NCBI GenBank assembly: GCA_030627385.1
Contig: DAOUSF010000001.1
Coordinates: 12,077-76,076, forward strand
Reading direction: 5' to 3'
Length of the DNA: 64,000 nucleotides
Source of the DNA: Methanosarcinales archaeon
GTDB lineage: Archaea > Halobacteriota > Methanosarcinia > Methanosarcinales > Methanocomedenaceae
This document shows positions 274 to 48,529 of this stretch, piece by piece. Each line of letters opens with the position of its first letter. Within the stretch, counting starts at the first letter, position 1. The position numbers and the translations under genes are program-made. The notes beneath the pieces were generated by a model that saw only the letters and a program-made list of their open reading frames with translations, was not told the origin of the DNA and did no database searches.

Positions 274-855
274 TTACGCCTTTGTATGGCTCATTATCAT
301 CTGGTAAATAGAGTGATCTTCCATTTCAAGTGCATCCTCTATCATAAGCTCGGTAACAAAATCAGATAATCCTTTACCTGTATCGTGATCCCAATCATTA
401 AGGCTCCTGTATACAAAACGTGTTACCATTTCCTTTATGGTATCCTCTTTGACAGGCAGTCCTTCTTCAATCAAGCTCACTACCTGTTCGGGATCTGATT
501 TAAGAGGTGTTCTGTATAGTATCCATATAGCAATGATATTCTTCTTTATGGTCAAAGATGTTACAATGCCTCTTGGTAGACGGACTGATATTTTGATATG
601 TTGGGAAGTGGGCAAGGACTTAACAAGAGTGCTTTGAACAGTGGAGCCGGTGGAGCCCGTGGAGCCCTGAAGGTCTGGTGGTGCGGAGTCTTGATTGTAT
701 TGCTCCTTGAAACCCTTTTTATAGTCCGACTGTTCTGGGACAGGTGAAGTGGCAATGGTCTTAACAATGGTCTTAACAACCTTCTTACGGTTGTTTGCAC
801 GGCTGACTGGGTTTTGGAATTCAAACTTGTTTTGGAGATTGTTGATACTGTTCAT
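274..855 (-). CDS. hypothetical protein; possible ribbon-helix-helix-like DNA binder
   Basis: 193-aa minus-strand ORF with AAGGAAGG upstream. It contains a GSTGSTGST repeat, and the ISVRLPRGIVTSL segment resembles an RHH beta-strand. It abuts the large non-coding region. Confidence 0.55.
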   Translation of the reverse strand: MNSINNLQNKFEFQNPVSRANNRKKVVKTIVKTIATSPVPEQSDYKKGFKEQYNQDSAPPDLQGSTGSTGSTVQSTLVKSLPTSQHIKISVRLPRGIVTSLTIKKNIIAIWILYRTPLKSDPEQVVSLIEEGLPVKEDTIKEMVTRFVYRSLNDWDHDTGKGLSDFVTELMIEDALEMEDHSIYQMIMSHTKA

Positions 856-961
856 AGGTGCCCTTCCTTGTTAGTTGTGTCTGGTCATACAATACATAAG
901 ATAGACGGCTTTAATTGGTTTGTCAAGAACTTTTTTATAATCATACTACGCAGGGGTCCAA

Positions 962-1050
962 TTCAGTATAGCGAAATAGGCGCGGTACAGAGGTCGGGAT
1001 ACAGCTTTCAGTATTCAGTGGTTCAGTGTGGAGTGGTTGCGGGGTTCAGT
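962..1050. repeat. cluster of five TTCAGT motifs
   Basis: TTCAGT occurs at 962, 1007, 1014, 1022 and 1045, all in the same orientation. Confidence 0.5.
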
Positions 1051-1189
1051 ACTACATGGGACGGGATCTTATGATACTACTTAGGGGTTGGTAAATATTT
1101 ATGATGTGAGAAAGGGCCCCCGGCCATTTTCAGAAAAGGGGTTCCCGCCGCCTTTGGTGATATCATTGTTATCCTCAGTGAACAACCGT

Positions 1190-1451
1190 GGCAGGATGTA
1201 TATATCGTTGGCAGGATGTATACATTGTTTGCCTAATAATAACAATGTTCTGCCCATGATAACAATGTTTATTCTCCTATAACGTTGTTCTGCCTATGAT
1301 GCATGTGTTTATCCTATGATAACATTGTTTAGCCTATAGTTACATTGTTTAACCTATGATAACATTGTTCATCCTATGAGGCATACGTGTAGCCTACGCC
1401 ACTCATGTATAGCCTATGAGGCATACGTGTAGCCCATGATAACATTGTTAT
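1190..1451. repeat. tandem array of about 13 x 20-bp iterons (candidate replication origin)
   Basis: The units read GGCAGGATGTATAYAYYGTT x2, then (G/T)CCYATGATAACAWTGTTYA and GCCTATGAGGCATACGTGTA variants. The 20-bp period is strict and there are no spacers. Confidence 0.85.
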
Positions 1452-1699
1452 TGTATAGTGAACGCCGTTCGGTAGGTGATAGTGTTGTTATTACGATATA
1501 AACAAGGATCTACGATATGAATGGCATACCATCCTGTGTGGGCGTCTATGCAAGTACCGTGCTAAGGCGTATATTTCCTGCCCTTGATATAAGACGCTTT
1601 ATGGGTGATATAAGAGCGGTATATGAGGGACAGGACCACTCACCCAGGCAAAGTCTGAATCTCAATATTCGGTTTTTATCCTATGATATCGGTACTTTA

Positions 1700-1910
1700 T
1701 ATAGGCAGGTTTAGTATAGGCTTATATATCGGTAGGTTACAGTGATTTAGGCAAAGTCAAGGAAATAATGCGGTTTCTATCATATGGCTGAATATTTGTG
1801 GCCGGACTTATATCAAGGCAGACTTATATTGTTAGGCAGGCATAACTATAAGGCGAGGACGGATGTGGCAGATATCGAGGCACGGACTGAGGCAGATATG
1901 ATCCGGCATA
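1700..1910. repeat. dispersed GGCAG/TAGGC short-repeat cluster
   Basis: Examples are aaGGCAGactta, taGGCAGgcata, gtGGCAGatatc, gaGGCACggact and gaGGCAGatatg, spaced about 10-14 bp apart. TAGGCA and TAGGCT copies occur at 1706-1750. Confidence 0.5.
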
Positions 1911-1958
1911 TTTGAGTCAATCAAACGACAATAAAACGCCGTACAAGACAAATCCTTG

Positions 1959-2040
1959 CTGTTTTTACGCTGTTTTAGTGTATTGCGTATATAATCGCCG
2001 GCATTTGATATAAACAGCGTTTAAATAGCACTAAAAACGA
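1959..2040. repeat. copy of the intergenic inverted-repeat / ATAGCACTAAAAACG element
   Basis: ACGCTGTTTTA (1967) pairs with TAAACAGCGT (2011) and is followed by ATAGCACTAAAAACG (2025). The same core occurs at about 5574 and 29336. Confidence 0.5.
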
Positions 2041-2230
2041 TTATTAATGAATATGGCGCGGATATTGCTTAAAATAACAATGTTATCGGTAAAAAAACAA
2101 TGTTAATTAGGCAAAACAGCGTTATTTGCACTCCAATAGCGGTATTTCAACATTTATTTTGCCCTGTAAATAGCCGTATTCATTACATTATTTGAGAAAA
2201 CGCCGCAAATCGCCGCATATGTATGCTAAT

Positions 2231-2260
2231 ATTATGTATTATTATGTATTATTATGTATA
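2231..2260. repeat. 3 x 10-bp tandem repeat ATTATGTATT
   Basis: attatgtatt attatgtatt attatgtata, read directly from the sequence. Confidence 0.8.
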
Positions 2261-2271
2261 AAGCAATTGAC

Positions 2272-2365
2272 AGTGCCTATTCATGGCACTCTTGACTGAT
2301 AATTTATTTTCATTTATCTTTCAGGGTGGGCACTAATTGCCTATCATGGGCACTTAATTGCCTAT
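2272..2365 (+). promoter_or_regulatory. candidate promoter with GGCACT operator sites
   Basis: The palindrome AGTGCC-N7-GGCACT (2272-2290) abuts TTGACT (2292-2297), followed by a 17-nt spacer and TATCTT (2315-2320). Two direct repeats GGGCACT(T)AATTGCCTAT lie at 2328 and 2348. Confidence 0.35.
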
Positions 2366-2629
2366 AACGGAGTTTTACTGCTATCCGGTTCTATTATAGA
2401 TTGAAATCGAACAACAAACGGGACGGCGCATCTGGCGCAACAGGCAACAAAGTAAACGCCGACGCAGGCAACAACATGCACCGCATATGAGGCAGCGGGT
2501 TATGATCTTTGAAAATTTGTAAAATCGGACGTAAAGGCGGGACGCCATTTGGGATGCTCGGAAGAGTTCTTAAAAATCAAGGAAAGTGGTTGATCCAGGA
2601 AAACAAGCCAGTCCGTAGGTGCTATATAG

Positions 2630-3060
2630 AATCGAAGGAAGGTAGGCGCCTTGAAGGAACATAAAAAAAGATTAATTACAAAAACGTAGGTTTTAAGGAA
2701 AAGGTTAAAATAGGACTTAAAGCGTAGGTTTTTGTGCTTAATAACTGATAAAAAAGGAGATTTAAAATGAATTTATGCAAATTGATAGGATACGGACTTG
2801 TTTGGGGAACGGCAGTAAACGTGGCAATTATTTTGATTCTGGCTGGGATGTAATACAAGAAATTCAGGAGAACATGAGAAAAAATGGCTATTTTTAGCCC
2901 AATCCATGTCGACCAAAGGCAGAGTAAGCGATCCAGCAGAGTATAGCCTAATAGGAAATATTGTAGGATAGGCTTATCTTATATAATCTTATAGCTTTTT
3001 TTTAATGAAGGTATAATGAAGGTAGGTTGTATATACAAGGTAGGATGGTAAAGATAATGA
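2630..3060. repeat. dispersed (A/C)GTAGG(T) motif cluster
   Basis: Copies include gaaGGTAGGcg 2640, acGTAGGtttt 2686, gcGTAGGtttt 2733, tGTAGGatagg 2962, gaaGGTAGGttg 3027 and caaGGTAGGatgg 3046. Confidence 0.45.
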
Positions 3061-3115
3061 GGATAAGGCGGTCTTGTTCTTAATAGTCATATAATCGAAT
3101 GAAAAGGAGTAAATC

Positions 3116-3625
3116 ATGGGAAATCTTAAGGATGTTGTAACTGTTGATTGTAAGTCATTTGGCAAAAAAAGTGCTAATTTTAAAAAATGTTTGACCTGTG
3201 AGGATGAGGTGAAGAAGGCCTGCCAGGATGCTTTTATTGCATTAAGTGCCGAAAAAACTGAAGTAAAAGGAACTGAAGTAAAAGAAATTACCAATAATCA
3301 GGAGAATCAAAAGAATCAGGAGATTAAAACAATGAAAAACTTGAAAAATTCCACAAATTCAACAACTGCCGCAACAAATGCAAAAATTGGAAAAGCCCAG
3401 ATGGTTAAGGATATGATCTTTAGCCTCGCAAGAAAAGCCGAATATACTCGGAAAGAATTGGGACAGGCTATTCAAGCTTCCTTTCCTGAGTATAAAAATT
3501 CTACTTTGTCCACTTATATCTCTGATTCGTTTAATGTGAAATATGCAGGAGTTACAGGATGTGGCGCCCATCGGATGTTGTCATATGTCCAGACTGGCAA
3601 GAAAAAAATCATAGTAGTAAGATAA
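3116..3625 (+). CDS. hypothetical protein; C-terminal domain paralogous to the 32379..32948 protein (putative DNA-binding)
   Basis: RBS AAAGGAG. The C-terminus ...YTRKELGQAIQASFPEYKNSTLSTYISDSFNVKY aligns with ...HTKKEIVDEVAPKFPDVTVSTISTFVQDCMNVKY of the 32379 ORF. Confidence 0.7.
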   Translation: MGNLKDVVTVDCKSFGKKSANFKKCLTCEDEVKKACQDAFIALSAEKTEVKGTEVKEITNNQENQKNQEIKTMKNLKNSTNSTTAATNAKIGKAQMVKDMIFSLARKAEYTRKELGQAIQASFPEYKNSTLSTYISDSFNVKYAGVTGCGAHRMLSYVQTGKKKIIVVR

Positions 3626-10224: not shown

Positions 10225-10254
10225 TTGACAGGTTACGTATTTTTATGTAATAAT
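10225..10254 (+). promoter_or_regulatory. class-1 phage promoter, copy b
   Basis: TTGACA-18 nt-(TGT)AATAAT followed by GTGTATAG. Confidence 0.7.
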
Positions 10255-10300
10255 GTGTATAGTTGAGTATGGAACAAATCATAAGAAAAGGAGATCGAAA

Positions 10301-11155
10301 ATGTCCGATAAAGTTTATACAATTTTACAGGAAAAGATTTTGCAGAAACTTGCCGAGGGAGTTATTCCTTGGAAGAAAAATTGGAACGAATGCGGTGGGT
10401 TTCCCAAGAACATCATTTCCAATAAAGCTTACAAAGGTTTCAACCACATCATGCTTATCTGCCAGGGATTTGCATCCCCTTACTGGATGACCTTTAATCA
10501 GATCAAACAGCTTAAAGGTAAGTTGAAAGAGGGTGAAGGTAAGAACTATGCCATTATCACTTACTGGAAGTTGCTCAAGAGTGAAGACAAGGAAACGGGT
10601 AAAGAAAAGAGTTTCCCAATGATCAGATATTACCGAGTTTACAACTTGGATCAAACTGAGGGGATCACTCCTAAATGGAAAGTTGAAATTCCAAAGTATA
10701 ATAATGACCCAATTGAAAATTGTGAACGGATGCTGGCCGAAATGAGGGAACCCGCCGAAATCATATGGGGAATGAAACCCTGTTATATCTCTGCCAAAGA
10801 TAAAATCGGAATGCCTGAAATGGATCAATTCAAAACTGCCAGTGATTTCTATGATGCCTTGTTTCATGAAACCGCACATAGCACCAAATCAATGCAAAGG
10901 ATGAATCGTGACAAACATTCCTATGCCAAAGAGGAATTGATTGCTGAAATGACATCTTGCTTCCTGTGCGGAATGGCTGGAATTAATCAAGCTGTTATAG
11001 ACAACCAGGCCGCTTACTTAAAAGGATGGGTGGAAAAGATTAAAGGCGAAAACGTAAAGATGATCGTCCAGGCGGCCAGTGAGGCTCAGAAAATTAGTGA
11101 CTGGATACTTAATATAAACGAATTTACCGAAATGAAAAAGGGGGCAGCGGCTTGA
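10301..11155 (+). CDS. ardC: ArdC-like antirestriction protein (ssDNA-binding N-domain plus zincin metallopeptidase domain)
   Basis: The N-terminus ILQKLAEGVIPWKKNW...GFNHIML...WMTFNQIKQLKGKLKEGEGK matches the ArdC N-domain pattern. The C-domain carries HETAHS (HExxH). ATG at 10301 follows AAAGGAGA. Confidence 0.8.
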   Translation: MSDKVYTILQEKILQKLAEGVIPWKKNWNECGGFPKNIISNKAYKGFNHIMLICQGFASPYWMTFNQIKQLKGKLKEGEGKNYAIITYWKLLKSEDKETGKEKSFPMIRYYRVYNLDQTEGITPKWKVEIPKYNNDPIENCERMLAEMREPAEIIWGMKPCYISAKDKIGMPEMDQFKTASDFYDALFHETAHSTKSMQRMNRDKHSYAKEELIAEMTSCFLCGMAGINQAVIDNQAAYLKGWVEKIKGENVKMIVQAASEAQKISDWILNINEFTEMKKGAAA

Positions 11156-22317: not shown

Positions 22318-22519
22318 GGAGTATTAAATTGGATTATAAATTTGCCATAGTCAATCATACCACGTTACACATTTCCAAGTTCATGTCACGGGATGAATTA
22401 TCGGATGCAGTTATTTCCTTTAAACACAAGGATATTGAATTTACTGCATTAAGGTATTATGAAAATATTAAAAGATGGGTTGCCTTTGACAAATGGGAAT
22501 AACTGTAACAAACAGCACT

Positions 22520-22666
22520 ATGCCGGGAGGGTACACTCCTATTTGTGAAAAATGTGGAGTGTGCCTTTGCTGGGATATCTCAGAAGAGGAATACCAAGAA
22601 CGCCCATTATTTTGGGATAACTGGACTTGCAAAGAATGTAGGGAGTATCATGAAAATAACAATTAA
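22520..22666 (+). CDS. hypothetical small zinc-binding protein (48 aa)
   Basis: MPGGYTPICEKCGVCLCWD...WTCKECREYH has two CxxC pairs. Below the track cutoff. Confidence 0.4.
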   Translation: MPGGYTPICEKCGVCLCWDISEEEYQERPLFWDNWTCKECREYHENNN

Positions 22667-23075
22667 TGGACATGTATACACCGAGGCGGAGATTATGACG
22701 GTAAAATCAGCTTTAACTAATTTTACCAGTGATTTAAATCATGGTGCAATGGGAGAAGATGAACGTGGAGAAGCGATAACCAAAGGGTATATAAGTAATA
22801 TCAAGAGTTTACTCCAAAAACTCCAAACCAAATGTGACAAGGTAGATAGAATCAAGTCACATAAAAATATCACACAATTTCCTGGAGTATTGTTAAAAGA
22901 GGATGGGGATCCTAATGTAATTATTTCTGGAGTATACGATGAGGTGGATTCAGTAATAATTATGGGAGATGGAAAAGATGGGGAGCCCTACTTTGCTTCA
23001 TCTATTGCTGACGGTGCTGAAATCTTGTGGTTATTGAAAAAACTGGAACTCAAATTGTTGACAGATTTCACATGA
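22650..23075 (+). CDS. hypothetical protein
   Basis: ATG at 22650 after GGGAG, within the track ORF 22545..23075. Confidence 0.55.
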   Translation: MKITINGHVYTEAEIMTVKSALTNFTSDLNHGAMGEDERGEAITKGYISNIKSLLQKLQTKCDKVDRIKSHKNITQFPGVLLKEDGDPNVIISGVYDEVDSVIIMGDGKDGEPYFASSIADGAEILWLLKKLELKLLTDFT

Positions 23076-25128: not shown

Positions 25129-25827
25129 ATGTTTATTGACATTAATAATCTTTCTATATTGGATTTAACTGGCCTACGGGAAATTAAAACCAATATAGAA
25201 AGAGAAATTAAACTAAGGGAAAAAACATTAAAAGAAAAAAGAAAAAAGATTCAAGAAGAAAAAGATAAAATAACCATAAAAAAAGAAAATAAAACAGAAA
25301 AAAAACGGCAAGACTGTAAAAAACACAAACTGTATCTTCCCCTCCCCATAAATGGACATTATTGTAGATGTCTGTCATACCTTCCTTACCTACTTAGTCA
25401 AGATTGGACACATCTGTATAAAGATGCCTGGTTAGATGATGAAAAAAAATACTATGTATATGCCCACACAAATCCTTTAAAACAAAATACACACATAACA
25501 AGTAGGTTAATAATACCTGGTATTCCTTTTTATATAGGAAAAGGTACAGGAGATAGAGCATGGGATTTAAAAAGAAATCAAGGGCATGGTAAAGAAATAA
25601 AAAAAATATCACTATTTGTACCTGAAAACGATATTGTTTTTATAGTTAAAGATAATCTTACAGAGGAACAGGCATTTATATTAGAATCAAAACTTATATA
25701 TTTCTTTGGTACTATATATGGATTAAGAAAAAAAGGTATATTATATAATTTAAATGAAGAAAGAACTCCTTTGTTTAGTGAACAAAAATTTGTGTTACGA
25801 AAAAAACAAAATAGGGGTGTGGTATGA
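25129..25827 (+). mobile_element. GIY-YIG family (homing) endonuclease-like gene
   Basis: YYVYAHTNP...IPFYIGKGTGDRAWD resembles the YVY...PFYVGKGxGxR GIY-YIG core. The N-terminus is Lys-rich. RBS AAAGGAG. Confidence 0.55.
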
Positions 25828-27194
25828 AACATGGTGAAGAATTTAATCCTAGAATAAAGTTCTACGGACTTTTTGTTCCTAATTGCATAGCTATGAATGA
25901 TAAAATACTTGATGCTCCTAAGTTACTGTTAGGAAGATTAATGCAGTTTGCAGGAAAAGATGGAAAAGCTTATCCTACTGTGGGCAGATTAGCTATGGAG
26001 CTTGGATGGAGCAAAAAGAAAAGTCAAAGAAATATAAAGGTCCTGAAAGACATGGGCTTAATAAATGTAAGTAAATTAGAGCCTGACAACCCTATCTCTC
26101 CGAATATATACGCATTCCCATATAGCCCACTATACGACTTTGAACCGGGTGACAATGTTGACACCGGGTGTGATGGAGAAGACGATGGAACCTCTATACC
26201 GGGTGACACGGATGTCACCGGGCCGGTGTCACGGATGTCACCACATATAATAGAATCAGAAATAATAGAATCACCTATTTGTAATTCTTCTAAAGAAGAA
26301 TATGCTCCTGCGGAGCCTACCTCTGCGAGTGATAGTCCTCTTGATTACAATGGCTTACTTTGTTCAATGTGTAATGAACCTCAATTCTCTTGTAAATCAG
26401 GAGATACCTGCAAGAATGGGCATGGAGGAGTTGAAGGCATTGAAAAAGAAGAAATTGCTCCTATATCAATATTTCCTACTAAGTTAAAAAGGATTATTAA
26501 AACTCCGAATCCTTTCAAATATTCCCCTAAGACATTGAAAATCATTGTTCATTGGGAAAAACGTGGAGGTAAAGTTCATTATAAAACAACATCAGGCAAT
26601 GGGCTTGATAAAATCAAAAATATGATTGATTATGAATTATTAACTCCTGGATTAAACTCTTGCTATTCCCGACATACGAAAAATGATGACCTTAAAAAGA
26701 AACAGTGGACTGTAAATGAAATTTTGCAGTCAATTGATTTTTATACCCAAACTTTGAACAAAGATGTTTCCAAAATGTATTTCAGTCAGTTTGTGTGGAT
26801 AGAGTATTTTGGACCCGCATCCCGTCATCTTAGAAACCACTCACCTTTGCTTGACAGCTTTAGAAATCTTCCCGATGAAGCTACAGAAAAATGGCAAGCA
26901 TTGCTCAGGAAGAAATTCAATAAACTGTTTCCTTCAGTTGATATCAACTCCACAGTTCTTCTCAATACTGCCGCCTATCTTGTTCAACAAGATATAGAGT
27001 TTAAGGTTGTTGATAGTGGAGTACTTGGCAATCATATGGTGAATCTATATGTTGCCTATATGAGAAGGATAGTAACTGCTAAAGGTGATTATGAATCCTT
27101 AAAATATATGTCGGGACAAAAGAATCTGGATGATTTCGTCACATACTTCCTAACTAAATCAGTAAAGCTGAGAAAGAGGTCAAAACTTGCTTGA
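25824..27194 (+). CDS. putative replication initiator / helicase loader (N-terminal winged HTH)
   Basis: AYPTVGRLAMELGWSKKKSQRNIKVLKDMGLINV reads as a DnaD/replisome-organizer-like HTH. It lies directly upstream of the DnaB-like helicase and overlaps it. Confidence 0.5.
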   Translation: MKHGEEFNPRIKFYGLFVPNCIAMNDKILDAPKLLLGRLMQFAGKDGKAYPTVGRLAMELGWSKKKSQRNIKVLKDMGLINVSKLEPDNPISPNIYAFPYSPLYDFEPGDNVDTGCDGEDDGTSIPGDTDVTGPVSRMSPHIIESEIIESPICNSSKEEYAPAEPTSASDSPLDYNGLLCSMCNEPQFSCKSGDTCKNGHGGVEGIEKEEIAPISIFPTKLKRIIKTPNPFKYSPKTLKIIVHWEKRGGKVHYKTTSGNGLDKIKNMIDYELLTPGLNSCYSRHTKNDDLKKKQWTVNEILQSIDFYTQTLNKDVSKMYFSQFVWIEYFGPASRHLRNHSPLLDSFRNLPDEATEKWQALLRKKFNKLFPSVDINSTVLLNTAAYLVQQDIEFKVVDSGVLGNHMVNLYVAYMRRIVTAKGDYESLKYMSGQKNLDDFVTYFLTKSVKLRKRSKLA

Positions 27195-32378: not shown

Positions 32379-32948
32379 ATGGCAAAACTGACAGACGCCC
32401 AGAAAGCAGAAATGGCAAAATTAAAAGCGATTCCCAATGATTTGATGAAATTATCCATTGCATCCCTCAATACCTTCTTGACCAGCAAGGAAAAAGACAA
32501 AATGCCCAAAGCAAAATCCAAGGGCGAAGCCGTAAAACTTTTTACCGATGCAATTGCAGGCCTGCTTGAAGCTGACCTGGGTGAAGAAATTCCGGAAGAT
32601 GTTGCAACTTTTTATAACGACCATGTTGTGGGTGACGATGCAGAGGCTGGTGATACAGGTGCTGATGATGGAAAAGCCGCCCCCAAGCCCAAAGCTGACA
32701 AGACCAAAACAACCAAACCCCGGAAAACCAAAGCGGAAATACAAGCCCGGTATGATGCAATCTCTGCCATGATCGTCACAGGTAAACATACCAAAAAGGA
32801 AATCGTGGATGAAGTTGCTCCCAAGTTTCCGGATGTCACGGTCAGCACCATCTCCACATTTGTGCAGGACTGTATGAATGTTAAATACAACAAATTGCCC
32901 AAGTTGACGGTTAAGGCCGAAGACGGAAAACTCTCCTTCGCCAAATAG
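32379..32948 (+). CDS. Lys/Ala-rich putative DNA-binding protein (paralog of the 3116..3625 C-domain)
   Basis: RBS AAGGAGAAAG. Central AAPKPKADKTKTTKPRKTK tract. The C-domain is shared with the 3116 ORF. The gene has its own promoter and terminator. Confidence 0.75.
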   Translation: MAKLTDAQKAEMAKLKAIPNDLMKLSIASLNTFLTSKEKDKMPKAKSKGEAVKLFTDAIAGLLEADLGEEIPEDVATFYNDHVVGDDAEAGDTGADDGKAAPKPKADKTKTTKPRKTKAEIQARYDAISAMIVTGKHTKKEIVDEVAPKFPDVTVSTISTFVQDCMNVKYNKLPKLTVKAEDGKLSFAK

Positions 32949-37914: not shown

Positions 37915-40900
37915 ATGGGATTTTTCACTAAATCCCAGTTATCTAAGCGGTCCGAGGTCAAGGTTGATGTCAATGACTTGGAATCGGATTGCTTGGCTTG
38001 TGGGTTATTCAAAGACACAATCCATCCAAAGATGGAATACTCAGGACAAGGTCAAAAGAAGATTCTCATTATAGGTGAATTTTCAAGTGACGAAGATGAC
38101 CAATATGGTCAACATTTCTATGGAGAACGAGGCGATCCATTAAGACAGCAATTAAGGTTCAATAATGTCAATATGAACAAGGATTGCTGGAAAGTTAACG
38201 CTGTTCGATGCAATCCTGATGGACTTAATTTACCCAGTCCTGGCCAGGTTCAAAACTGCTTCCCGTATATCAAAAAAATGATCAAACAGTTAAAACCTAA
38301 ATTGATACTTCTTCTGGGTGATTTGGCTATTTCTTCATTGTACGGAAAGGATTTTTCAAACAGAAGCATACACAGATGGAGAAAGTATGTTATACCCGAT
38401 CAAGAGTTCAGTTGTAATGTTATTCCTCTATATCATCCCTATCATCTTTTCCGTCAATCCAAGAAAAAGAAGAAGAAAGACAAAAACCTCGAAAGTGTAT
38501 TCAATCGGGATCTAAAATTTGCTCTCAGACAGTTGGAACGCCCGGTTTTAACGACAAAGAACTATGAAAGCAATGTCACACTGTTAACAGACTTCAACCG
38601 CGTTAAAAAGCTGTTAAATCGAATCCTCAAGCGTAAATCAAAAATCTATTTTGATTATGAGTCCACAGGACTAAAGCCTTTCAGAAAAGGCCATAAGATT
38701 GTGACCATTGGTGTTGCTGTATCTGCCTCAAAAGCGTTTGCGTTTCCTTATCAGTGGAAAAGTTTCTGGACTCCCTCTGAATTAAAGGTTATAAAGAAAC
38801 TCTGGAAAAAGATTCTCAGGGATGATGAAATCCTAAAGATGGCGCACAATTGCTTTTCAGGTGATACAAAATATATAACTAAAGAAGGATTGAAGTCCTT
38901 TATTGATACAGAGAACACTACCCAAACAGTGTGGACAAAGGAAGGATGGAAGGATGCTAAAGTTAAATGTTATGGAAAAGATCATCTTTCTAAAATAGTA
39001 GTAGGCCCTGAACTTAGAAGTAGATCCAAGATTAAAAGAACTATTCACAGCACTGAAAATCACCGTTGGATTGTAAAAAGAAAATTCAATCATTGTTACC
39101 CTAATCCCTCTACCTTTAAAACTATAGAGGTTACCACAGACCAATTGAAATTAAGGGATAATATAATTTCGGAAATGCCCGAATTCACAATTGATCAAAA
39201 TACAGAGGCTTTTAGACATGGATTAATCCTTGCGGATGGAGGTCGTTCCAGTAAACATTCCCTTCATTTTCAAATCAGACTATGTGGTAAAAAAGAAAAG
39301 TATAAAGACATTTTTCCTAAATATACGTACCCCCTTTCTGCTAATGGTGATCCGGTTGTGAATTACTATAAAGCCTCTTGTGATATGAAGAAAGTTCCTG
39401 AGAATCCTACGGCAGAGTATGTAGCAAACTTTATAGCAGGATGGGATGCTGGTGACGGCACAGATTCAGCAACTGGAAGATCAAGAGTCATAACTACCTT
39501 TAATAAAGAACACGCTACATGGTTAAAGGACAATGCAGAACTTGGTGGATGGAAATGTACTGGATTTTCAGAACATATTAATTCGAAAGACTTTGATGGG
39601 AATTATATAGACCCGCACCCTTACTGGATGATAATATTAACAAAGGAGAAAGTAAACTGGACAGTAAAAGAAATAAAACACAAGGATAGATACGAGAAAG
39701 TGTACTGTGTTTCTTTACCAAAAGAGGAATTTACTCTCCAATATGGTATTTACACAAGGAATTGCAAATTTGAGCAAGTGTGGTCAAAGGTTATGTTCAA
39801 TGTAATGCCTAAGATTCACTTTGATACTATGATGGCAGAACATATCTTGGACAATAGATCAGCCTCAACAGGTTTGAAATTTCAGACGTTCATAAGGTTC
39901 GGTGTTAAGCCCTATGATAAAGATATTGCTCCCTTCCTAAAAGCAAAGAATGGAGAATTTAATACCATAGAAAAAGCACCATTCAAAGAGTTATTAACAT
40001 ACAATGGACTTGACTGCATTTATGGATGGATGGTATACGATAGACAGATCCTTGAAATAACCAAAAGACGGGACGTAAAGGATGCAATGAAAAGCGTTCT
40101 CGGTGAGGTTGATGCTCCCGAAAAAAGCCTACTTGGTGCTTACAATTTCTTCATGCGTGGTAACGAACAGATGGCTATTATCCAGCTTAACGGGATCAAT
40201 ATGGATTCCATTTATTATCAAAAAGCTGAAAAGAATCTGGAAAAGAAAGTCAAGGAGTTAAAGCACGGATTGGAGAATGGTCGTGAAGCGGAAATGTTTC
40301 ATAAAATGTTCGGACGACCAATCAGGATCACATCCAATCAAGATCTCGGAAAACTATTCTATGAAGTTCTGGGAAAAGATCCCGTCTATACTGCTAAAGG
40401 GGGGTATAAGACAGATAAAATGACTCTGGAGAGTTTGAATCTACCTTATGTAAAAAACCTCCTTAAAATGAAAAAGTACGAGAAAGCCAAGGGAACTTAT
40501 CTTGGTCAGTTTGCAAGAGAGATATTTAGGACAAAGATGTATCCATTCTGGGATCTTAATATTCCTGTCAGTTATAGGAGTTCATCATCAAAACCAAACT
40601 TTCAGAATATTCCTAAACGTGATGCAGAGATAAAGGCAATCATTAGAATGGGAATTGTTCCGAAAAAGGGATGTGTGTTAAGTGAAATTGATTTTTCAGG
40701 TGCGGAGGTTATAACTTCCGCCACTTACCACAAGGATCCAACATTTATTGCCTACTTGACAGAAAAAGATGCATCAGGTGAGTTGATAAATGATATGCAT
40801 AGAGATAATGCAACTGACCTTTTGATGTTACCTCCTGATATGCTTGAGAATCCTAAGTATTCAAGGGACCAGAAAAAGTTAATTAAAAAGATTCGATTCT

Positions 40901-41592
40901 TTGCCAAGAACAATTGGACTTTTGCTCAGTTCTACGGTGATTGGTTTGGTTCGTGTGCTCCTATGTTCTGGGAGAATGTTATTGAGGTGGACTTAGAACT
41001 TCCTAATGGCATGACTTGCCGAGAATGGCTTGAAGAAAAAGGCATCTATGAACTCGGAGAAGTAAAAGATGGAACTCCCACAGAGGGAAGCTTCATGGAG
41101 CATTGTGCCCATGTCCAAGAAAAGATGTGGAATGAACGATTTCCTGTATATACTCAGTGGAAGAAGGATATAGTTGAGAAATATAGAGAACATGGTTTTA
41201 TTCCCAATCATTTCGGTTTCAGATTCACAGGATATATGTCCGATAATCAGTGTACAAACTATCCCATCCAGTCAGCAAGTTTCCATCTGTTGGTTCATAC
41301 TCTGATTGAGGTACAGAAGTTCATTGATAAAAATAACCTGAAAACAAAGATAGTTGGGCAAATTCATGATAGTATTATCAGCAATGTTCCTGAAAATGAG
41401 ATCAAATTCTACCATGCAGGTGTTAACAAGATTGTAAAAGGCCTGATGAATGAATTTAAGTGGTTGATAATTCCAATGGAAATCGAAGCTGAAATAACCA
41501 AGTTAAGAGAAGATGGAGGAAACTTTTCTGACCTTAGAGAAGGTGACCCTGATAATATGGATTATGAAACAATCTGGAAGGAGGCAGCATGA
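37915..41592 (+). CDS. family A DNA polymerase with N-terminal UDG-family-4-like domain, 3'-5' exonuclease domain and an intein
   Basis: UDG-like IIGEFSSDEDD..FYGERGDPL, PLYHPYH. Exo I FDYESTGL and Exo II AHN|CKFEQVW. Pol motifs A (IDFSGAEV), B (RFFAKNNWTFAQFYG) and C (QIHDSI). Confidence 0.9.
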   Translation: MGFFTKSQLSKRSEVKVDVNDLESDCLACGLFKDTIHPKMEYSGQGQKKILIIGEFSSDEDDQYGQHFYGERGDPLRQQLRFNNVNMNKDCWKVNAVRCNPDGLNLPSPGQVQNCFPYIKKMIKQLKPKLILLLGDLAISSLYGKDFSNRSIHRWRKYVIPDQEFSCNVIPLYHPYHLFRQSKKKKKKDKNLESVFNRDLKFALRQLERPVLTTKNYESNVTLLTDFNRVKKLLNRILKRKSKIYFDYESTGLKPFRKGHKIVTIGVAVSASKAFAFPYQWKSFWTPSELKVIKKLWKKILRDDEILKMAHNCFSGDTKYITKEGLKSFIDTENTTQTVWTKEGWKDAKVKCYGKDHLSKIVVGPELRSRSKIKRTIHSTENHRWIVKRKFNHCYPNPSTFKTIEVTTDQLKLRDNIISEMPEFTIDQNTEAFRHGLILADGGRSSKHSLHFQIRLCGKKEKYKDIFPKYTYPLSANGDPVVNYYKASCDMKKVPENPTAEYVANFIAGWDAGDGTDSATGRSRVITTFNKEHATWLKDNAELGGWKCTGFSEHINSKDFDGNYIDPHPYWMIILTKEKVNWTVKEIKHKDRYEKVYCVSLPKEEFTLQYGIYTRNCKFEQVWSKVMFNVMPKIHFDTMMAEHILDNRSASTGLKFQTFIRFGVKPYDKDIAPFLKAKNGEFNTIEKAPFKELLTYNGLDCIYGWMVYDRQILEITKRRDVKDAMKSVLGEVDAPEKSLLGAYNFFMRGNEQMAIIQLNGINMDSIYYQKAEKNLEKKVKELKHGLENGREAEMFHKMFGRPIRITSNQDLGKLFYEVLGKDPVYTAKGGYKTDKMTLESLNLPYVKNLLKMKKYEKAKGTYLGQFAREIFRTKMYPFWDLNIPVSYRSSSSKPNFQNIPKRDAEIKAIIRMGIVPKKGCVLSEIDFSGAEVITSATYHKDPTFIAYLTEKDASGELINDMHRDNATDLLMLPPDMLENPKYSRDQKKLIKKIRFFAKNNWTFAQFYGDWFGSCAPMFWENVIEVDLELPNGMTCREWLEEKGIYELGEVKDGTPTEGSFMEHCAHVQEKMWNERFPVYTQWKKDIVEKYREHGFIPNHFGFRFTGYMSDNQCTNYPIQSASFHLLVHTLIEVQKFIDKNNLKTKIVGQIHDSIISNVPENEIKFYHAGVNKIVKGLMNEFKWLIIPMEIEAEITKLREDGGNFSDLREGDPDNMDYETIWKEAA
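38851..39762 (+). mobile_element. intein (304 aa) with LAGLIDADG domain inside the Exo II motif of the polymerase
   Basis: It starts CFSGDTKYITKEG. Block B is TENH. LAGLIDADG motifs are GLILADGG and FIAGWDAGDGT. It ends VYCVSLP...GIYTRN, followed by Cys as the +1 residue. Confidence 0.85.
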
Positions 41593-46521: not shown

Positions 46522-47403
46522 ATGGCACGGAAAAGGATTCTGTTAATGGACACCTCAAGTGTCCTACACATTGTAAAACACGCAGGAGGTAAACACCTCA
46601 AAGAAAAGGATAAGTCCACTTATATCATTCTTGGCTTTCTTTTTAAACTTCAATTATTAATGCAAAAAACCAAGCCTAATGTTTGTGCTTTTGCAACTGA
46701 CAGTCTTCCGGAAGATTCTGTCAGGAGAAAAATGTATCCAGGCTATAAGTTCAAAAGAAATACCCGAGAAAAGTCGGAGGCTGATCTTGCATTGGATGCA
46801 ATAGCATGGCCACAATTTGATGCTATGGAACAAGAAGTGTTGCCTATGATGGGATACTCTAATATATTCCTCACAAAGGGTCTTGAAGCTGATGACATAA
46901 TCGGAAAAATCTGTAAGTCCTACAAAAACTGTGAAATCATCATAGTAACCTCAGATCAAGATATGTATCAATTATTAACTCCCACCACATGCATCTTGAA
47001 ACCCAAAACCTCCACGTATTATACAAAGGCAATGTTTTTGAAGGAATATGGAATTGAGCCTTATATGTGGAAAAGAGTAAAAGCAATCGGGGGTTGCTCA
47101 ACTGATGAGGTTAAGGGCGTTCAAGGAGTTGCTGAAAATACTGCTTTGAAATATATTAAAGGTGAATTACCCGAGCATTGGAAATCATACAAAGCCATAA
47201 TCAGTAAGGAAGGAAAGAGAGTAATCAATCGAAACAAGTCCCTTGTGATACTTCCGTTTAGAAGAACACCTGAATACGATGTTCAACCTGATAGGGTAAG
47301 CAAGATCAGAGTTCAAGGAATGGCCAAACAATATGGATTCAAAGCAATATTGTCTGACCTGGAAAACTGGACAAGAATATTAAAAGGATGGGGATCGGTA
47401 TGA
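46522..47403 (+). CDS. 5'-3' exonuclease / flap endonuclease (T4 RNase H-like)
   Basis: ILLMDTSS, YPGYKFKR, GLEADDIIG, VTSDQDMYQLL and GGCSTDEVKGVQGVAENTA (H3TH). Confidence 0.85.
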   Translation: MARKRILLMDTSSVLHIVKHAGGKHLKEKDKSTYIILGFLFKLQLLMQKTKPNVCAFATDSLPEDSVRRKMYPGYKFKRNTREKSEADLALDAIAWPQFDAMEQEVLPMMGYSNIFLTKGLEADDIIGKICKSYKNCEIIIVTSDQDMYQLLTPTTCILKPKTSTYYTKAMFLKEYGIEPYMWKRVKAIGGCSTDEVKGVQGVAENTALKYIKGELPEHWKSYKAIISKEGKRVINRNKSLVILPFRRTPEYDVQPDRVSKIRVQGMAKQYGFKAILSDLENWTRILKGWGSV

Positions 47404-47930
47404 TAAAATTAACCCATAAAGAGTTATTAAGACAATTAATGTACAATCCTTGGAATGGTTTGTTTTATTGGAAAGTATCTAATTATTGGTCTGTAAAAGT
47501 TGGAAGTATTGCGGGAAGTTCAGATAAAGATGGGTATATCATAATAGGCATTAATGGAAAATCATATAAAGCACACAGGCTTGCTTGGTTTTATGTTTAT
47601 AATTGCTGGCCTGGAAAAAACTGTCATCATCGGGATGAGATAACATATCACAATTGGATTAGTAATTTAGGTGATGTATCACGTTCTGTCAATAACAGAA
47701 TCTCAGGAAATAATAAAAATAATACGAGTGGAGTAAAAGGTGTAAAATGGGATAAACAATCAAACAGATGGGAAACAGAAATTCATATAGATAGCAAATG
47801 TGTATATCTTGGTCGCCACAAAGATTTTGATGAGGCTGTTTGTCATAGATTAGCCTGTGAACAATGTATAGGTGATGAAAATTCTGAATCAACCAGTCCT
47901 GCTTATTTATACGTACAAGGAATGCTATGA
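47388..47930 (+). mobile_element. free-standing HNH homing endonuclease with AP2-type DNA-binding domain
   Basis: FYWKV...DGYIIIGINGKSYKAHRLAWFY...HHRD...N (HNH_3 type); NTSGVKGVKWDKQSNRWETEI...LGRHKDFDEAV (AP2). Confidence 0.8.
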
Positions 47931-48529
47931 AGAAAATATCAATAAGACAACCAAGACAACCAAGACAACCAAGACAAATTAAGCAGGAAGAATTAATCAA
48001 AATAAGGAAATTTTTTCATAAGAAACAAAATGGAATTTGTCCTATACTTAAATTACGTTTTAATGTATCTAAAATGTGTGTGGATCATGCTCATACTGCA
48101 AATTCAAATAATCTGGGTAGACCAGAGGAGGCGGGATTGATTCGTGGAGTTATACACAGACAAGCAAATACAATGGAAGGTAAGATAACAAATTCCTTCA
48201 TTCGTTGCGGTCTGCATAAGTTTGATATCACTATGCCTGACTTCCTTAGGCATCTGGCTGACTTCATTGAAAAACCTACTATGACTCATTTGGGATACAT
48301 TCATCCGAATGAAGTGCCCAAAGGTAAATATCTCGGAAAAACTTGTATGAATAGATTGGTAAAAGCATACAATCACAAATATCCTGGAAGAAATATTCCT
48401 GACGTTATGATATACAAAAAATGGAAAAAAGGAAAGAAAAAAGGAAAAGAAAAAGGCAAGAAGTTAACAGCAGGACTGGAGCGATTGTTCGAGGAGTTCA
48501 GTATAGAACCCAGTTTTTTAAAAGGATAA
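47927..48529 (+). CDS. endonuclease VII (T4 gp49)-like junction resolvase homolog
   Basis: QNGICPILKLRFN..CVDHAHT...AGLIRGVIHRQANTMEGKI...IHPNEV is collinear with T4 gp49 QNGKCLICQREL..HLDHDHE...GKVRGLLCNLCNAAEGQM...IHPNFV. The N-terminus carries an RQP x3 repeat. Confidence 0.65.
   Translation: MKKISIRQPRQPRQPRQIKQEELIKIRKFFHKKQNGICPILKLRFNVSKMCVDHAHTANSNNLGRPEEAGLIRGVIHRQANTMEGKITNSFIRCGLHKFDITMPDFLRHLADFIEKPTMTHLGYIHPNEVPKGKYLGKTCMNRLVKAYNHKYPGRNIPDVMIYKKWKKGKKKGKEKGKKLTAGLERLFEEFSIEPSFLKG

Follow-up and report, generated by a model that had tools for sequence, protein, structure and literature searches.

In a genome whose genes nearly touch one another, what accounts for a stretch of 2260 bp with next to no coding content, situated where gene orientation reverses? 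The question is posed by positions 856–3115 of a 64-kb window (the whole stretch of DNA analysed here, which belongs to a contig of 101,489 bp). Gene calling by codon usage across the window gave 106 genes, separated by intergenic gaps with a median of 3 bp and a 90th percentile of 177 bp; against these values, 856–3115 is the largest gap and by far the outlier, and the second-largest, 709 bp at 22318–23026, has small open reading frames (ORFs) inside. To the left of 856, both genes run on the minus strand; from 3116 to 64000, all called genes run on the plus strand. An earlier note on this DNA had offered three explanations for the gap, namely an origin, a regulatory switch region, or a genome end joined during assembly. 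The explanation that we consider moderately probable is that 856–3115 constitutes a conserved non-coding control hub between a leftward packaging and morphogenesis operon and a rightward early and replication arm. Such a hub is best read as a composite of protein-binding modules rather than as one element, and would combine a transcription switch, a probable packaging signal and a specificity array.

The gap and the switch of orientation across it are both as the earlier note had claimed. ORFs inside the gap have codon scores of at most 0.136 per codon, as opposed to 0.198 ± 0.053 for called genes, and the ORF at 1517–1714 (65 codons) has a weak AAGGA and poor codon usage. Gene callers had placed two ORFs, of 65 and 40 amino acids (aa), in the hub of a public contig; no hub ORF has a family match. 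Nor did the hub contain a structured RNA recognized by Rfam, whether the threshold was the gathering score or E ≤ 1, and searches for tRNA and tmRNA were negative there. The further claim that no ORF in the gap is preceded by a ribosome-binding site was wrong, in that a 28-codon ORF at 2767–2853 stands behind a perfect AAGGAG at 2754–2759; apart from this overlooked mini-ORF, the original observation is real. The short-repeat families, put at six or more, number at least eight, and 9 of the 17 rows reported by Tandem Repeats Finder for the whole window fall in the hub, which makes up 3.5% of the sequence. Seven of the eight exact copies of AACATTGTT are within the gap (1.6 expected in the whole window), and AAGGTAGG and AAACGCCG each have three copies in the gap and none elsewhere in the window.

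Whether such a region is a genuine property of a genome or a product of its assembly can be judged from its relatives. Related contigs, originating from many samples, were reached through homologues of the 193-aa protein encoded immediately left of the hub (n = 22) and of the terminase small subunit (TerS), and the same layout was found in more than 12 independent metagenomic contigs of related phages. Six of these (L001, L006, L011, L012, L023 and L024) and two further contigs span the hub, and have an ORF-poor divergent gap of 1.4–2.1 kb at the same place. Others (L007, L008, L010, L013, L021, L022, L025 and L026) enter the hub and end inside it, at their position 1; a further contig, L009, stops in the hub as well, though at what looks like a hairpin artefact. 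Termination inside the hub, in most cases within tandem arrays, affects about half of the related contigs, and assemblies of this clade break there systematically. Two full-length relatives, both longer than 100 kb, differ in the genome position at which they open, as is the case for circular or concatemer-type assemblies. Because the same layout recurs in independent contigs, the hub is not an assembly join; it is a real, evolutionarily conserved control region, whose overall order, starting from the leftward operon, is promoter, TACTAC boxes, GC island with a C-run, 20-bp array, A+T-rich and repeat segment, mini-ORF and tandem AAGGTAGG units.

The window itself has the character of phage DNA, with a GC content of about 38% and strong ribosome-binding sites of the AAGGAG type, and is part of an uncultured tailed phage of about 101 kb. 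How the leftward arm continues can be seen in L001, a public contig with an identical 193-aa protein, where small ORFs are followed by TerS (HTH_28/HTH_23; PHROG terminase small subunit), the large subunit TerL, a DUF4055 portal, and head and coat genes. The plus-strand arm, which begins at 3116, encodes two helicases, a Toprim primase, an O-like replication initiator (25824–27194) and a DnaB-like helicase, and also a sliding clamp, PolA fused to a UDG domain, a clamp loader, SSB, a RecA-like protein, FEN, ligase and nucleases.

The features at the left end of the hub are (window positions):

274–855, minus strand: first gene of the leftward operon, encoding the 193-aa protein with 22 homologues.
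898–926, minus strand: predicted leftward sigma-70-type promoter, with −35 TTGACA (926–921), a 17-nt spacer and −10 TATCTT (903–898); scan match 10/12.
944–1080, plus strand: three co-oriented TACTAC boxes, at 944, 1050 and 1075.
962–1050, plus strand: five TTCAGT repeats between the TACTAC boxes (1.5 expected).
1075–1152, plus strand: composite element, made up of the last TACTAC box, the A/T-rich GTAAATATTTAT (1091–1102) and a GC island with GGGCCCCCGGCC (1114–1125) and GGGGTTCCCGCCGCC (1137–1152).

The putative promoter lies about 40 nt upstream of the ATG at 855 and has the hexamers, the spacer (within 16–18 nt) and the placement of sigma-70/sigma-A promoters; it is preceded by an A/T-rich upstream element and a TACTAC box. 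The arrangement GTAGTAyrATyrTAAAA..cTTGACA-17-TAnnnT is present in 11 related loci, and a twelfth (L026), for which the row is truncated, has only the −35 box. A host-type sigma-70 promoter, as predicted from sequence, drives the leftward operon, and its retention in 11 loci supports the earlier proposal of a regulatory switch, as do the TACTAC boxes, the operator-like palindromes, a plus-strand promoter-like site and the tandem repeats before the first early gene.

The TACTAC boxes are a regular component of these hubs: there are 39 of them in 12 related hub segments (2–7 per hub), the first being 22–24 nt from the −35 hexamer, and none occurs as the reverse complement in the eight hubs scanned for reverse orientation. 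Measured from the last box, the C-run follows at 42, 45, 44, 41, 42, 42, 45 and 43 nt in eight loci, and the TACTAC/C-run element is present also in L022, L023 and L026. The composite element at 1075–1152 is a candidate for a terminase recognition or cleavage site or for a control site of the late operon. That the C-run might form a hairpin or terminator (CCCC..GGGG) was rejected, in that the pairing is not consistently present across relatives in the alignment.

The putative reader of this element would be a conserved protein, either TerS or the 193-aa product. Because TerS is conserved (63–88% identical) across lineages whose 20-bp arrays are unrelated, it is a good candidate for the TACTAC boxes and a poor one for the array; as a binder of the variable array we regard it as unlikely, since the protein, including its helix-turn-helix, is too similar between lineages with unrelated repeats. 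Separately, the TerS of this clade (L001 4678–5319, and the alignment) has a conserved N-terminal Cys/His cluster, C-H-x-H ... C-x10-C-x2-H, and this pattern suggests a zinc-binding module ahead of the helix-turn-helix. Alternatively, the TACTAC boxes might be bound by the C-terminal domain of the 193-aa protein. In alignments the N-terminal 85 aa of this protein are disordered and variable and residues 86–193 nearly invariant; the latter are modelled by AlphaFold2 (AF2) as a beta-hairpin and five helices, with a predicted local distance difference test (pLDDT) of 80–93. A ribbon-helix-helix fold, proposed by eye from the motif HIKISVRLP, was discarded when the model had this topology instead. 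The protein has no match in the PDB by fold or profile and none in Pfam, PHROG or NCBIfam.

If the TACTAC/C-run element is read by terminase, the hub may also hold the physical genome ends or the start of packaging, which could take the form of a cos or pac site or of the edge of a long direct terminal repeat. This possibility, which we view as a serious one though short of an even chance, is compatible with a control hub and not exclusive of it: the contigs would display the natural concatemer junction, with the TACTAC boxes as putative terminase-binding sites and the C-run as a putative cleavage region. Termini in the hub are plausible because the conserved element adjoins the terminase operon, being directly upstream of the operon that encodes TerS and TerL, and the distance from box to C-run core is held at 41–45 bp throughout the clade. 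By analogy, the GC island, set in AT-rich DNA and flanked by repeated sites, is reminiscent of lambda cosN/cosB and the pacL-pacC-pacR of SPP1, and the contigs of about 100 kb start at different positions, as expected for circular or concatemer-type assemblies. The relatives of TerL (39–43% identical) include Salva and Siara, which have terminal repeats of 3,973 bp and 2,528 bp, respectively, by PhageTerm (PMC7953286, PMC9119069); an identity of about 42%, however, does not fix the packaging type, and a promoter-proximal TACTAC box could equally be a transcription-factor site. Moreover, the contigs that end in the hub break inside arrays or before the C-run, the exception being L013 (about 10 nt after the C-run). 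The left end of Salva has no element homologous to TACTAC/C-run, and the literature on termini of TerL relatives supplied long terminal repeats for Salva and Siara only and nothing usable for PaMx11-like phages or Queuovirinae. Of the joined genome end suggested in the earlier note, therefore, natural termini are retained as a possibility, and an artefactual join is excluded by the same layout in at least nine independent spanning contigs. As an aside, the 830-bp non-coding leader upstream of terS in Pseudomonas phage PaMx11 (L015; TerL 43% identical) holds a tandem array of 12 CACCAG copies at 180–250, with no sequence similarity to the hub.

Beyond the C-run lies the repeat array of the hub, which is listed here with its outliers and with the gene for its candidate binder:

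1159–1172: extra iteron-like copy, preceding the array.
1189–1500, plus strand: the 20-bp array, about 13–16 units in strict 20-bp phase without indels; consensus TTAGCCTATGATAACAATGT, palindromic core AACAnTGTT.
Within 1189–1500: array subtypes GATAACATTGT, GAGGCATACGT and TGGCAGGATGTATA.
2076–2084 and 2096–2104: outlying iteron cores, in orientation opposite to the array.
3116–3625, plus strand: first rightward (early) gene, encoding 169 aa with an N-terminal Cys4 motif and a conserved C-terminal winged-helix-like domain.

The identity of the array to itself at a lag of 20 is 0.562, whereas the maximum in 2000 shuffles was 0.396 and the best 312-bp window elsewhere reached 0.455. In L007, L010, L011, L022 and L023, too, the C-run is succeeded by an array repeating about every 20 bp, and the sequence of these arrays is lineage-specific: close relatives retain the array core (L007, L010, and L011 with about 25 copies of AACGTTGTT), and distant relatives have unrelated units of the same period (ATGCATAACATAATGATTC in L022, AATAATAATTACCCATAACC in L023). 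L006 and L012 carry other repeats, of 10-bp multiples, and an exact search for the iteron in IMG/VR returned single chance matches only.

The 169-aa protein is, suggestively, a candidate binder of the AACRTTGTT array. Its AF2 model, of low confidence, has an H-H-H-hairpin topology and matches winged-helix DNA-binding domains only, the top Foldseek matches being those of Fur, PerR, PadR and BlaI. The family is present in the window and in L011, both of which have AACRTTGTT arrays, and has no member in the early flanks of L006, L023 and L024, whose arrays are of other kinds. Paralogous copies of its winged-helix-like C-terminal domain occur at 32754–32888 of the window (ORF 32379–32948, in the region of a deazaguanine gene cluster) and in L011, where a stand-alone 80-aa gene (2162–2404) encodes the domain and adjoins three iteron-like sites.

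An array of this kind invites the interpretation that the hub is an origin of replication. There is, however, a better candidate 23 kb away, within a gene:

26144–26301, plus strand: lambda-type origin candidate, inside the O-like initiator gene (25824–27194).
26148, 26202 and 26225: dyad 18-mers GGTGACA-N4-TGTCACC, with 0–1 mismatch, found nowhere else in the window.
26242–26271: A+T-rich direct repeat ACATATAATAGAAT / CAGAAATAATAGAAT, after the dyad 18-mers.
26284–26301: palindrome ATTCTTCTAAAGAAGAAT, the second palindrome of the origin candidate.

As in lambda-type origins, dyad repeats in the linker of an O-like initiator are followed by an A+T-rich segment, and the helicase gene is next (the PHROG annotations of the two genes are ‘replication initiation O-like’ and ‘DnaB-like helicase’). 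The second and third copies of the dyad are translated in different frames (PGDTDVTG and PVSRMSP), and in three homologous initiator genes (L017, L019 and L016) the origin elements are at the same positions. Their half-sites change in concert within each genome, being GGTGACA in the window and L017, GGTATCA / TGATACC in L019 and GTGTCA / TGACAC in L016; AATAGAATCA is invariant in its two copies, and the second palindrome is preserved through compensatory changes. Repeats that change together, independently of the reading frame, point to selection at the level of DNA. By these sequence features, the initiator-dependent origin is most likely not in the hub but inside the O-like initiator gene, at about 26.15–26.30 kb.

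Genes of homing-endonuclease type are found around the replication genes (25130–25827, 47388–47930 and 47927–48529): a GIY-YIG-like ORF is directly upstream of the initiator, and HNH-AP2 and endonuclease VII-like genes are further on.

A replication origin in the hub, primary or second, would consist of the 20-bp array, the GC island and the A+T-rich tract, and would depend for its firing on transcription from the hub promoters or on some protein different from the O-like initiator. We think this unlikely, despite several points in its favour. An iteron-type origin calls for at least three direct repeats of 17–22 bp in helical phase, and the array has 13–16 at exactly 20 bp; it is the only large repeat array in 64 kb, and it is lineage-specific, as expected if initiator and iterons co-evolve. 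There is also A+T-rich DNA with 10-bp repeats at 1950–2260. This tract, however, does not adjoin the array but is about 450 bp from it, the flanks of the array having 38–51% GC and the nearest DNA of 28–33% GC beginning near 1950. The half-sites of the initiator are absent from the hub (GTGACA, GGTGAC and TGACAC, 0 copies each), and for this reason the O-like protein was also rejected as the one that binds the array; nor is there an enrichment of DnaA boxes in the hub. The cumulative GC skew has a minimum that coincides with the hub and its orientation switch; because all genes are co-oriented with the arms, GC skew cannot tell the hub from the in-gene site. The origin proposal of that note is consequently weakened by the better-supported signature in the initiator gene. 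Elsewhere in the window, the large gaps at 22.3 kb and 43.0 kb and the A+T-rich region at 25.0–25.3 kb were set aside as origin sites, being coding or short and without arrays.

Taken together, these modules suggest how the control hub might operate. The TACTAC/C-run element would be read by TerS or the 193-aa product, and would act as a packaging recognition site (pac- or cos-like), as a control site of the late operon, or as both. A phage-specific DNA-binding protein, dimeric and most likely identical with the winged-helix 169-aa first early product, would coat the variable 20-bp array, and the resulting nucleoprotein structure would set the early/late balance of the divergent promoters. Initiator-dependent replication would start elsewhere, inside the O-like initiator gene.

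Several considerations weigh against this account of the hub. The 13–25 in-phase repeats exceed what is typical of operators, and fit iteron, centromere or packaging arrays equally. The model of the 169-aa protein is of low confidence (pLDDT 48), its fold matches have E values of 0.02–1, and the co-occurrence of its family with the AACRTTGTT iteron extends to five loci and is confounded by their relatedness. Promoter-like sites across the scan do not exceed those in shuffled sequence (9 found, 10.8 expected), and rightward promoters are not convincingly mapped except for the site at 2292–2320. Every assignment of a protein to a site is one that we infer. There is, lastly, the possibility of a second, initiator-independent origin in the hub, which shares in the low probability that we give to a hub origin as a whole; SPP1, with its oriL and oriR, is a precedent for a second origin, and in lactococcal phage c2 the origin is intergenic, between divergent early and late genes.

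A more ambitious interpretation, to which we attach about as little probability as to a hub origin, would join these parts: the succession of TACTAC, 41–45 bp, C-run and lineage-specific array would be an undescribed element that defines a clade of ~100-kb phages with 7-deazaguanine DNA. One nucleoprotein assembly would then link concatemer cutting or the initiation of packaging with the early-to-late transcription switch or, alternatively, the array would serve as an initiator-independent second origin; and the variable array would be swapped, together with the winged-helix early protein cognate to it, as a specificity cassette.

Very improbable, in our estimation, is that the array is a centromere-like or genome-organising site under a filament-forming adaptor, comparable to parC of ParMRC, tubC of TubZRC or the EBNA1 repeats. 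Its 10–25 in-phase repeats with a short palindromic core do resemble, by analogy, the 20-bp repeats of pSK41 parC or those of tubC, but none of the window proteins screened, the products of part of the 106 genes, matched a ParA, ParM or TubZ family in Pfam, PHROGs or NCBIfam, and no integrase, lysogeny or plasmid-maintenance gene was seen in a gene content that looks lytic. Least credible of all is that the gap arose by a chimeric join, or that it in fact encodes protein or an RNA: gene callers did put 65- and 40-aa ORFs in it and many contigs break there, but these breaks fall in repeats, codon usage is non-coding with no family matches and nothing in Rfam, and the nine or more contigs sharing the layout are independent and from different samples.

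To the right of the array, the hub contains the A+T-rich tract, further repeats, the mini-ORF and the approach to the early arm:

1550–1915, plus strand: segment with GGCAG (13 copies, 3.7 expected) and GATATA/TATATC.
1582–1593 / 1807–1818: inverted repeat CCTTGATATAAG.
1854–1899: 24-bp repeat, two copies, in the GGCAG/GATATA segment.
1931–2260: A+T-rich tract, 28–33% GC.
1934, 2198 and 2454: three dispersed copies of AAACGCCG, with a spacing of about 260 bp.
1957–1975 / 2012–2030: inverted repeat in the A+T-rich tract.
2230–2259: three copies of TATTATGTAT, in the A+T-rich tract.
2268–2370, plus strand: operator-like cluster, with the palindrome AGTGCC-N7-GGCACT at 2272–2290 and all four copies of GGCACT within 80 bp.
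2292–2320, plus strand: rightward promoter-like site, TTGACT-17-TATCTT (9/12 match).
2327–2370: 21-bp repeat GGGCACTTAATTGCCTAT, two copies.
2612–2742, plus strand: CGTAGGT/GGTAGG family, with three of the window's four CGTAGGT copies.
2671–2697 / 2716–2742: 27-nt inverted repeat in the region of the CGTAGGT family.
2767–2853, plus strand: mini-ORF of 28 codons, MNLCKLIGYGLVWGTAVNVAIILILAGM, 7 nt from its AAGGAG; hydrophobic (grand average of hydropathy 1.64).
3003–3060, plus strand: three tandem AAGGTAGG units of about 18 bp each, with −10-like TATAAT / TATATA / GATAAT, immediately upstream of the first early gene.

The mini-ORF is probably the gene of a small membrane peptide; hydrophobic mini-ORFs occur at the equivalent position in L006 and L011, with weaker ribosome-binding sites. 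L011 also has four tandem GGTAGGTTATAAT units where the window has its AAGGTAGG units, and a 10-bp repeat in three copies, AAATACATAA, similar to that at 2230–2259.

With regard to the rest of the genome, 30444–36699 carries a complete 7-deazaguanine (preQ0/preQ1) set (QueD/PTPS, the radical-SAM QueE, QueC, GTP cyclohydrolase I and QueF), accompanied by a 637-aa TGT/DpdA-like transglycosylase, and the DNA of this phage is probably modified at guanines. TerL in L001 (5816–9217) has 1133 aa, as compared with 487 aa in relatives, and contains LAGLIDADG/Hint intein insertions; PolA (window 37915–41592; 1225 aa, with the UDG domain at its N-terminus) has a weak intein-splicing match. A protein with ArdC-N and zincin metallopeptidase domains, of an anti-restriction-like type, is encoded in the early arm of both the window (10253–11155) and L006 (729–1589). 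GenBank phages gave no match in DNA similarity, and relative to cultured siphophages the identity reaches at most 43% for TerL and about 27% for the portal. A scan of IMG/VR with each of the two flanking proteins singly found nothing, as did a scan of genome contigs, which thus gave no clue to the host.

If our interpretation is correct, the hub marks out sites that can be tested in a clade of uncultured phages whose DNA is modified: a host-type promoter, a conserved candidate packaging signal, a specificity array with its candidate binder and, at a distance, a separate lambda-type origin. It also cautions against equating a large, divergent gap full of repeats with an origin, because the better candidate here is hidden inside a gene. 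And because the arrays of the hub break metagenome assemblies, knowledge of its architecture helps to close and orient genomes of this clade.

Four groups of known systems come closest to the hub. The first is that of the divergent early/late control regions of virulent and temperate phages. In phage c2, early and late promoters and the origin share one intergenic region, and phi29 has the A2b/A2c/A3 switch region. By analogy, the hub is like such divergent control regions in being non-coding, in its position between opposed early and late blocks, in its host-type promoters and several protein-binding repeats and, as we would count it, in a nucleoprotein-mediated switch; it is unlike them in its much larger size (2.26 kb), its clade-specific TACTAC/C-run element and its 13–25 in-phase 20-bp repeats. 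With lambda cos (cosQ-cosN-cosB) and SPP1 pac (pacL-pacC-pacR) it shares a location just upstream of the terminase genes, a short GC-rich core, and repeated putative sites at fixed distance with an A/T-rich (bendable) segment between; it has, in contrast, no homology to the recognition sequences of Nu1 or G1P, and its array is far larger than cosB or pacR. Like iteron origins (the lambda ori in O; oriV of R6K, RK2 and P1), the array has direct repeats of 17–22 bp in helical phase, lineage-specific in sequence and with a GC-rich patch nearby, but it has more copies than is typical and is without initiator half-sites, its nearest A+T-rich tract is about 450 bp away and DnaA boxes are not enriched, whereas the in-gene element at 26.15–26.30 kb closely matches the layout of lambda ori. 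Partition centromeres (type II/III; pSK41 parC, tubC) likewise have numerous in-phase repeats that contain a short palindromic core and lie upstream of an operon; the hub differs from them in its lytic phage context and in that no partition NTPase was found in the part of the 106 genes that was screened. The kind of element is known, and the particular architecture is new and specific to this clade.

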